Source: Opitutaceae bacterium (lineage in GTDB: Bacteria > Verrucomicrobiota > Verrucomicrobiia > Opitutales > Opitutaceae). Taken from it: a stretch of 24,000 nt of DNA. Below the pieces are notes generated by a model. It was not told the DNA's origin. It worked only from the letters and a program-made list of their open reading frames with translations, and did no database searches. Location: assembly GCA_041395105.1 (NCBI GenBank), contig JAWLBB010000002.1, forward strand, positions 298,104-322,103, in the 5' to 3' direction. Below, one piece after another: positions 7,257 to 9,315 of the stretch. The first letter of the stretch is position 1. Each line of letters begins with the position of its first letter. The position numbers and the translations under genes were made by a program.

Positions 7257-8246
7257 TCAATCGTTTACCGCGATGAAGGCTCCGCCGTGTTCATAGGTCA
7301 GCTCACGCATGAGGTTGGCGAACTTCAGACCGGTCTGGCCCATTGAAAACGAGTAGCGGATGACGTTGGGAAACCCGATCGCGTTGATTGTGACCGAACG
7401 TTTCCCTTCTTCATCCCTTGGATTGAGGTCATCAATACGCTTCAGCACCGCGTCCGCCGTCCCGGTGAATTCGTCACCGAAGACATAAACGCCCATATTC
7501 ATCTCGGGATCGTCCGGCCGGTTCAGTGTCCGGATAGCCTTGATGATCCCGGGGACCGGATTGCTGTTGCTGAAAACGCCGTAGCGCCGCACCGCCCATT
7601 TGACACGTTCCCGAATCTCCGGGCTGTCGGGAATCCACTCGTTGCCGCCGCCGACCACATTGCGACCATCGGCGTCGAATACCTGGATTCCATTGACCAA
7701 CGGGTAGGATTGGAGAACGTCTTCAATCTTGTTGACCACAATGGGCCACATGTCGCCGGTGTTGGGGTCACGCATACTACCGGAAGTGTCGATGACAAAG
7801 GCGAGGTAGTTGTTCTCGACCGGAACGCCGATCGGGAGATCGGTCTCCTGAGGAAGGTCCACTTCCTTCTGCATGGCGGCGATCTCGGCGAGGATCGACT
7901 CGATATCGACCAGGAGATTCTCCTTGCCCGCCTGGTACTGCTGAAACTGGGCCTCCAGCTTTGCCAGCATGGATTTCATCTCGTCGATCTGGGGAGCAAG
8001 GAATTCCAGACGTTCCTGGTCGGAAATCATCCGCTTGGAGAGCATCTCCCTGGTCGCCCGCAGCTGGGCCAGCAGTGCCATCCGTTGCGCGATGGTCTGC
8101 TCAAGGCTGTCCTTCATACCCTGAAGCACTGGATTCTGTGCTCCCATTGAGATGACAAAGAGCAGGATGATCGCTCCAAACCCGCAGCAGATGCAGTCAA
8201 GGAACGATAGGCTGAAAACCTCCGCAGCGCGTCGTTTCTTTGCCAT
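7257..8246 (-). CDS. TolR/ExbD-like N-terminal anchor + coiled coil + vWA domain with intact MIDAS (329 aa)
   Basis: The N-terminus MAKKRRAAEVFSLSFLDCICCGFGAIILLFVI aligns to TolR EINIVPLLDVLLVLLLIF, with the same Glu-to-Asp spacing of 8. About 100 aa is heptad-rich (LEQTIAQRMALLAQLRATREML...LAKLEAQFQQYQ). The vWA start is LAFVIDTSGSMRD (DxSxS MIDAS). The ATG lies 1 nt after the upstream stop. Confidence 0.7.
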   Translation of the reverse strand: MAKKRRAAEVFSLSFLDCICCGFGAIILLFVISMGAQNPVLQGMKDSLEQTIAQRMALLAQLRATREMLSKRMISDQERLEFLAPQIDEMKSMLAKLEAQFQQYQAGKENLLVDIESILAEIAAMQKEVDLPQETDLPIGVPVENNYLAFVIDTSGSMRDPNTGDMWPIVVNKIEDVLQSYPLVNGIQVFDADGRNVVGGGNEWIPDSPEIRERVKWAVRRYGVFSNSNPVPGIIKAIRTLNRPDDPEMNMGVYVFGDEFTGTADAVLKRIDDLNPRDEEGKRSVTINAIGFPNVIRYSFSMGQTGLKFANLMRELTYEHGGAFIAVND

Positions 8247-8247
8247 T

Positions 8248-9315
8248 TCAGGTGTCGGGCCAGGACCGGGCCGGGCTGACCAGGGCGCCGCGGGTTTCGT
8301 TGGACAATTCCCAGAAGAGCATGGCCGCCGCCGGGTCGCCCGTCATCGGGTAGAGGATGGTGTTGACCGGAATCCGCGGAGGCAGGCGCCGCATGGCCGC
8401 CCGGAACATCCGCTCCCGATCACGATCCGCAACCGACCCCCGGCCCGGATAGGTGTCGCTCAGAGTGGGTAGTCCGTCGACAAAGAGCACGATAGAATCC
8501 GCTGCGTATTTGAAATCTCGAGACACAGTAAAGGCACGCTCGAGATTGGCTCCGCCCTTCGGGACGAGAAGATCGAGTCGCTGGACAACCTCGCCCGAGG
8601 ACTCCCGATCCGCCGGGGCGAGCCATTCTCCATCCCGATCCGGAAGGATAGGCAGGGTCTCCTCGTTGAAGTAGAGTATCTGGTATTTGGTGGCCGCCGG
8701 AAGCGAATTGATCATCCAGAGGATGGAACGGATGACCCGCTGCCATTTCGGTGCCTTGCGCTTTTCATACTCCGGATCGCCCTGACGGGCGATCGCCCCG
8801 TCCACCGTGTCATCGAGCATGCCACCGGAGGCCTCAACCAGAAACAAAACCCGGTCCCCGTTGAGCTTGAATCCTGTCAGATACTGGCGCCGTTCGATGT
8901 TCGGGACGGGAATCGGCGGTGGCTCCTCCACCGTCGGGATGTTCTCCTTTTCCTCCATCCGCTTCTTCAATTCGTCCTCCAGGGTCGATTGCTCCAACAT
9001 GAGAAGGGCAAGGATCTCCTCCCGATTGGCCATCTTCTTCTCGAGTTCGGTCCGGGCGTCCTCCAGCGACTTCACACGACTCGTGTTGTCCGCCGTTGTA
9101 TCCTCCAGCTTCTTGACCGCGTCCTCCTCGATCGTCACTTCCACCGCCATCCGCTGGGCGATGGTCTGAAGATCGCCGATCTCCTTCTCGCTCACATCCG
9201 CCTTCTTTCCGCTGGTGATGACAAAGAGAAGAAGCACCGCGCCAAAGCCGCAGGAAATGCAGTCAAGAAACGACATGCTGAAGACTTCAACCGTTCGCCG
9301 TTTCAGTCGCGACAT
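8248..9315 (-). CDS. Paralogous TolR/ExbD-like anchor + coiled coil + vWA-like domain with degenerate MIDAS (355 aa)
   Basis: The N-terminus MSRLKRRTVEVFSMSFLDCISCGFGAVLLLFVI is nearly identical in pattern to the downstream paralog. Acidic coiled coil. The vWA-like core is VLFLVEASGGMLD (E-x-S-x-G instead of D-x-S-x-S). GGAGG lies 10 nt upstream of the ATG. Confidence 0.65.
   Translation of the reverse strand: MSRLKRRTVEVFSMSFLDCISCGFGAVLLLFVITSGKKADVSEKEIGDLQTIAQRMAVEVTIEEDAVKKLEDTTADNTSRVKSLEDARTELEKKMANREEILALLMLEQSTLEDELKKRMEEKENIPTVEEPPPIPVPNIERRQYLTGFKLNGDRVLFLVEASGGMLDDTVDGAIARQGDPEYEKRKAPKWQRVIRSILWMINSLPAATKYQILYFNEETLPILPDRDGEWLAPADRESSGEVVQRLDLLVPKGGANLERAFTVSRDFKYAADSIVLFVDGLPTLSDTYPGRGSVADRDRERMFRAAMRRLPPRIPVNTILYPMTGDPAAAMLFWELSNETRGALVSPARSWPDT

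Follow-up and report, generated by a model that had tools for sequence, protein, structure and literature searches.

The DNA analysed here, which we call the window, is a stretch of 24,000 nucleotides from an Opitutaceae bacterium (GCA_041395105.1, contig JAWLBB010000002.1, positions 298,104 to 322,103) that carries on its minus strand a four-gene operon in the order M-H-B-A (Table 1). A and B encode two paralogs, each built from an N-terminal membrane helix, a stalk and a C-terminal head, and it is these two proteins, and the motor they may form with the channel subunit M, that concern us. Motors of the TolQ/ExbB/MotA type have a 5:2 architecture, with two partner chains in each motor (as in ExbB-ExbD, TolQ-TolR and MotA-MotB), and power iron uptake, envelope integrity, motility and phage defence. 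A preliminary description of the locus proposed that A and B pair as the two partner chains of such a motor, one head having an intact metal-ion-dependent adhesion site (MIDAS) and the other a degenerate one. Both reading frames, and the single nucleotide between them, are as given there.

Table 1. Features of the operon and its surroundings in the window (aa, amino acids; TPR, tetratricopeptide repeat; vWA, von Willebrand factor A)
Feature	Position	Strand	Description
M48 peptidase	2326-3135	-	
TPR protein	3373-5097	+	
Gln/Gly/Ser-rich protein	5114-5827	+	secreted; convergent with A
A	7257-8246	-	329 aa; transpore helix (Asp17), coiled-coil stalk (~39-125), linker, predicted vWA head with complete MIDAS
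QTIAQRMA in A	8082-8105	-	
B stop / A start junction	8246-8250	-	TGAaATG, 1-nt spacing
B	8248-9315	-	355 aa; transpore helix (Asp18), coiled-coil stalk (~24-124), Pro-rich linker, predicted vWA head with degenerate MIDAS
QTIAQRMA in B	9148-9171	-	
H	9331-10893	-	501-520 aa; between channel gene M and B; labelled Hsp70-like
M	10865-11725	-	MotA/TolQ/ExbB-family channel subunit; Pfam PF01618, E 9e-15
Lipoprotein	11909-12559	+	divergent from M

Within their own genome A and B are the only two copies of the anchor-bearing paralogs. None of the four operon proteins matches the ExbD family (PF02472), A and B being without a match at E up to 1. A PF02472 scan of the genome gave nine ExbD matches, set against twelve MotA_ExbB matches; the ExbD genes mostly adjoin other MotA_ExbB genes, none is near M, and the closest lies ~50 kb from it. 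Searches of Pfam and NCBIfam returned no family match for H, and no MoxR-type AAA+ ATPase or DUF58 protein among the four. Assignment to a known defence system found no support either, as PADLOC gave only weak ZorA-like matches for M and, for A and B, nothing but coiled-coil noise.

Anchor helices and predicted heads of A and B

The preliminary description held that the paralogs share their N-terminal anchor, and this is borne out: the alignment of A with B is restricted to the first 55 residues, at 62% identity (BLASTP, E 1e-17). In the common stretch a basic N-terminus leads into a single hydrophobic helix bearing an Asp, F-L-D-C-I-C/S-C-G-F-G, an arrangement known from the ExbD/TolR/MotB transmembrane helix. 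The helix motif, FLDCICCGFG, is nearly identical between A and B and contains no His; a SHLS/His motif is absent. The helix Asp is kept in 98 of 99 A and all 95 B sequences. Beyond the helix, the short peptide TIAQRMA does occur in both proteins, as described, within a stretch (QTIAQRMA) over which the DNA of A and B is identical at 21 of 23 positions. As a functional or conserved motif we rejected it, since it is absent even from relatives at 81-88% identity; the stretch is either a chance likeness or a small gene-conversion patch.

AlphaFold2 (AF2) models built from the family alignments of B and A (A1 and A2, respectively) each consist of one long helix (residues 24-124 in B, 39-125 in A), a low-confidence linker of 20-30 residues and an alpha/beta domain, the head, with a predicted local distance difference test score of ~85-92 in both. 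Compared with PDB structures by Foldseek, both heads have vWA domains only as top matches. For the B head these are BatB (3ibs, E 3e-7), TFIIH p44/Ssl1, ITIH1 and CLCA1, with the Bacteroides aerotolerance vWA protein 4jdu also among the best; for the A head they are Rpn10, ITIH1 and integrin I domains. HMMER profile searches of PDB sequences with both family alignments did not see the vWA relationship and yielded coiled-coil noise only, so the assignment rests on AF2 and Foldseek. Both C-terminal domains are thus predicted vWA folds, including that of B, for which a different fold would have spoken against the preliminary description.

The presence of BatB and 4jdu among the best matches for B, together with the lack of an ExbD-type periplasmic domain in A and B, lends something to the alternative that the two, like BatA/BatB, serve as vWA scaffold or adhesion proteins anchored in the membrane outside the channel, and that linkage to a MotA-like gene reflects a shared pathway rather than one complex. 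We consider this quite improbable, given that the invariant Asp lies within a single transmembrane helix in an ExbD/TolR-like context, that no other B subunit is encoded near the MotA-like gene, that the operon has no MoxR-type ATPase, and that the linkage is conserved across two phyla.

Age of the pair and states of the metal site

A was found in 31 of 401 sampled Verrucomicrobiota genomes, all of which have a second, N-terminal-only match corresponding to B. In 29 of the 31 the two genes share a strand, with B ~1 kb upstream of A, and in one further genome (G150) the two are parted by contig ends. Presence is patchy in the window's own family (5 of 35 sampled genomes). Among annotated genomes, Lacunisphaera limnophila and Opitutales bacterium ASA1 carry homologs. 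The full M-H-B-A order is seen at 64 of 80 Opitutales loci, the other 16 being cut by contig ends; no A stands alone among these 80 where the flank is present. A homologous locus carrying only one copy, which would have told against a heterodimer, was not found in the material searched (100 loci). The reading frame of B is intact in every locus. The translational coupling proposed in the preliminary description is also well reflected among relatives, the two genes overlapping in ATGA in 78 of 93 related pairs.

A related-locus search of genome contigs gave close Opitutales relatives only, and the wider diversity considered here comes from the phylum scan, from a search of cluster representatives and from Xanthomonadales metagenome-assembled genomes, which were reached by walking from a B representative labelled Proteobacteria. 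The Xanthomonadales order is MotA_ExbB, a 422-aa protein, B (352 aa) and A (329 aa), with an ATGA overlap. In BLASTP comparisons the Xanthomonadales B scores 224 bits against the window's B and 45 bits against its A, while the Xanthomonadales A scores 186 bits against A and 60 bits against B. These reciprocal scores show A and B to be ancient, separate orthologous lineages present in both Verrucomicrobiota and Xanthomonadales.

The two heads of the window do differ at the metal site in the way first described, with FVIDTSGSMRD in A (residues 150-160) and FLVEASGGMLD in B (residues 158-168). With positions placed by alignment, A has a complete MIDAS (D153-x-S155-x-S157, S228 and D258) and B a degenerate one (E161, S163, G165, A256 and D280). 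The Thr-equivalent, which falls in the segment SNSNP in A and GGAN in B, was placed by motif position and secondary structure ('GGT-n-l' directly before a helix) rather than by superposition. Among relatives A is uniform, reading D-S-S-S-D in 99 of 99 family members from four clade groups. B is not. Opitutaceae-like loci have R-S-S-A-D (63), E-S-G-A-D (13) or R-S-S-C-D (1); family f5 has E-S-G-A-D (2), and family f3 has E-S-S-A-D (9) or E-S-S-S-D (1). In the distant Verrucomicrobiota families f35 and f41 the B motif is canonical D-S-S-T/S-D in 6 of 6, and in Xanthomonadales the MIDAS is complete in both heads. A 'QQTGAM' variant counted by regular expression in 18 B proteins was discarded in favour of these alignment-based counts, because the expression had matched elsewhere in the protein.

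Wider sampling gave the same picture. An exhaustive search of 1.84 billion cluster representatives (50% identity) with the B profile returned 299 clusters at E 1e-30 or better, across at least two phyla, and the MIDAS is canonical in 124 of the best 150 of these representatives; the 124 comprise 122 with D-S-S-T/S-D and two with D-S-S-A-D, which keep the Asp and which the tree below scores as degenerate. Nearly all of the sequences tested (153 of 156) are clearly B-type, their B profile score exceeding the A profile score by at least 50 bits. The remaining three, P0338 (802 aa), P0343 (376 aa) and P0372 (473 aa), score high on both profiles and resemble natural B-A fusions or miscalled genes merged across the ATGA. 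In a FastTree phylogeny of 136 full-length B proteins every one of the 26 degenerate sequences belongs to a single starred, well-supported clade of 32 rows, and at least two changes of MIDAS state are required. Within the smallest clade holding the degenerate forms the states form a decay series, from D-S-S-T-D through D-S-S-S-D and D-S-S-A-D to E/R-S-S/G-A-D.

The B MIDAS is therefore degenerate only in the window's order, where the condition extends over three families. The split anticipated by the preliminary description is accordingly not peculiar to one genome, although outside the order it gives way to a canonical B. It is real, conserved and order-wide, but derived, a lineage-specific decay laid over an older A/B pair. 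Because B orthologs outside the order are canonical and the degenerate forms lie in one clade, the pair predates the asymmetry, and the asymmetry cannot then explain why two subunits exist.

A stepwise series of this kind might also mean that B in the window's lineage is a decaying redundant copy heading for loss. We think this very improbable. Across Opitutaceae the B head retains 54% identity to the window protein, against 60% for the A head, and in distant clades the values are 37% (B) and 40% (A); B relatives at >= 47% identity share ~50 invariant residues, the frame is open throughout, and B is never missing where A is present. The MIDAS-less B head thus seems to be held by purifying selection rather than decaying, and its conservation suggests that B keeps a selected function for which the metal site is not needed. 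From the known roles of the motif residues, metal binding has probably been lost in B.

Stalks and the proposed make-up of the plug

The predicted stalks offer a second line of evidence. Heptad phase is continuous over ~85 residues in both A and B and, counted from the helix Asp, coincides in the two proteins of the window, as it does in 71 of 94 pairs, so the coiled-coil register, for which the preliminary description had recommended a check, agrees in most but not all pairs. At one 'a' layer, Asp+70, Asn is the modal residue in both families. The distances from Asp to MIDAS co-vary by clade (134/132, 138/142, 139/143 and 145/157; r 0.91). The a/d positions of each stalk also include 4-5 charged residues, whose layers differ between A and B, and stacking these core charges gives 5.5 like-charge layers for A-A, 4.2 for B-B and 0.18 for A-B. 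The g-e' salt-bridge score, taken as hetero minus homo, is positive in four of four clades (0.8 to 4.5 pairs), a small difference given without a significance test. The contrast of stalk charge that was noted at the outset holds in the window, where the charged fraction and net charge are 0.27 and -3 for A and 0.44 and -8 for B; as a family feature we rejected it, since it is not conserved.

We propose, with a probability of roughly 60%, that M forms the pentamer of a proton-driven 5:2 motor in which the two B-type subunits, its plug or axle, are A and B. The ExbD/TolR-like helix of each, bearing a single protonatable Asp, would enter the M pentamer to give an M5:A1:B1 assembly capable of rotation. 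The stalks, sharing their register from the membrane, would most probably join in a parallel A-B coiled coil ~13 nm long, and the Pro-rich linker would carry two different vWA heads towards the peptidoglycan or the outer membrane. The A head would bind a partner through its metal-dependent MIDAS. In the window's order the B head would have lost metal binding through the changes of Asp to Glu or Arg and of Thr to Ala, joined here by that of the third Ser to Gly; since B appears to be under purifying selection, it may serve as a structural partner or work through a different surface. On this proposal the ancient A/B pair would have lost the B MIDAS late, as a specialisation of one lineage.

Several observations weigh against this assembly or against parts of it. 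In one A protein (L097:6968-7990 (+), genome G294) Asn replaces the helix Asp (FLNCLCCGFG), while the Asp is still present in the partner B. The register that predominates in A of family f3 is not that of B. The covariation of stalk length rests on only about four independent clades. The core-charge argument is weak, as the overlap of charged layers between A and B equals chance expectation; moving the stalks by whole heptads, as a control, leaves 0.41 like-charge layers, little different from the 0.18 obtained in register. The analysis favours A-B over A-A and B-B, but performs no better than the shifted control, and we rejected it as proof of in-register pairing. In genome G377, the sole genuinely unlinked A/B pair seen, A lies mid-contig (L086:6995-7996 (-)) and M-B on another contig (L087:5144-8083 (+)). 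Finally, the Glu at the first MIDAS position of B might still allow weak metal binding.

Some of these points speak for two separate homodimeric motors, in which M pentamers would take either an A2 or a B2 plug and form two populations with different heads and targets. The almost identical transpore helices of A and B mean that either could fit M as a homodimer, and both the unlinked A of G377 and the differing registers of family f3 sit comfortably with such an arrangement. We nevertheless regard it as unlikely. Each of the 31 genomes with A has B as well, and none of the 100 loci is single-copy; the ATGA coupling implies equimolar synthesis; and in a homodimer the charged core residues of each stalk would face themselves. 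Published AlphaFold3 (AF3) models, moreover, put one of each protein in the pentamer (PMC12204202). The heteromeric plug is plausible, and has already been published; the MIDAS decay series in B and the invariance of the A MIDAS are what is new here, and they add modest detail. Taken together, the separate lineages and the MIDAS results show that neither head can stand in for the other. The MIDAS is never lost in A, whereas B can lose it and stay conserved, which makes the A head the candidate metal-dependent binder for pull-downs.

Neighbouring genes and known systems

H is a variable accessory of the motor. It has positional homologs in Opitutaceae, f5, f35/41 and Xanthomonadales. Family f3 (L092-L102) lacks it and has the order M-B-A. 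In f35 and f41 a divergent open reading frame of ~400 aa stands at its position (e.g. L083:4579-5889), and the Xanthomonadales homolog (422 aa, L103:4740-6008) has 23% identity over 240 aa (E 5e-10). The M48 peptidase and the TPR protein adjoin the operon both in the window and in the Xanthomonadales genomes (L103:9370-10734 and L103:5-1438; BLASTP 9e-23 and 5e-21), so the conserved neighbourhood in the two phyla exceeds four genes. The lipoprotein divergent from M has a glycine-zipper segment (PF05433, E 0.001, below the cut-off) and a long acidic coiled coil, and a homolog is likewise placed in 72 of 100 related loci, among them 9 of 11 in family f3.

The secreted protein convergent with A ends, in the window copy, in NTGVEQGDAMPSDI. 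The C-terminal peptide N.GVEKG[KR]..P.GL ends Gln/Gly-rich homologs in at least 31 Opitutales loci (L004-L074, e.g. L004:8104-8985 (-)). In Xanthomonadales a small acidic secreted protein, ending ...PVPLPSDI, is encoded just upstream of the MotA-like gene. It is possible that the secreted protein with the C-terminal peptide is a partner or ligand of the motor. A more specific and rather speculative proposal, which we consider improbable, is that the Opitutales axle is functionally asymmetric: only A would grip the ligand through a metal site, B being metal-free with Arg or Glu filling the site, and the ligand may be the co-located Gln/Gly-rich protein, whose invariant Glu would act like the Glu of collagen GFOGER towards integrin I domains. 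If true, this secreted protein would be the first named cargo for the class of motors to which the pair seems to belong.

That class was delineated in a recent study ('Origin and Evolution of Bacterial Periplasmic Force Transducers', Mol Biol Evol 2025;42:msaf138), in which helix-tethered vWA proteins co-occur tightly with tolQ homologs in the absence of tolR/exbD (PMC12204202). These transpore-helix vWA (TPH-vWA) proteins have a conserved Asp, are 'predominantly found in heterologous pairs' and belong mostly to Proteobacteria and Verrucomicrobia; AF3 models place the pairs inside a TolQ-like pentamer with the Asp facing a Thr ring (PMC12204202). The design is a prediction, the paper reporting no experiment, and its text contains no match to 'MIDAS', 'metal' or 'Hsp70' (PMC12204202). 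TPH-vWA motors are a widespread class with function predicted only, and our findings leave the published picture of the system unchanged.

Comparison with better-known systems places the operon more closely. As in ExbB-ExbD, TolQ-TolR and MotA-MotB, M has a MotA_ExbB channel domain and its partners have an Asp helix at the N-terminus; here, however, a coiled coil and a vWA head replace the ExbD (PF02472) or OmpA-like periplasmic domain, and two distinct partner genes take the place of a homodimer. A precedent for a heteromeric plug is found in the gliding motor of Myxococcus xanthus, AglR-AglQ-AglS, where two distinct TolR-like proteins are predicted to form a heterodimer in one TolQ-like pentamer (AglR5-AglQ-AglS, PMC11761067). 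AglQ and AglS differ in that their periplasmic domains are small and they have neither a coiled-coil stalk nor a vWA head. BatA and BatB of the Bacteroides aerotolerance operon (3ibs, 4jdu) share the membrane-anchored vWA heads and are among the top structural matches for B, yet their operon has a MoxR-type AAA+ ATPase as partner and a DUF58 protein, whereas A and B have the helix Asp, a long coiled coil and a MotA-like partner gene. The closest correspondence is with the TPH-vWA pairs (PMC12204202), which likewise combine a single N-terminal Asp helix without SHLS/His motif, a vWA C-terminus and a heterologous pairing with an adjacent TolQ/MotA-like gene lacking tolR/exbD, in Verrucomicrobia and Proteobacteria. 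Matching architecture and the Xanthomonadales orthologs suggest that A and B belong to this same family, and what sets the window's pair apart within it is a head without a MIDAS, a state limited to one clade.

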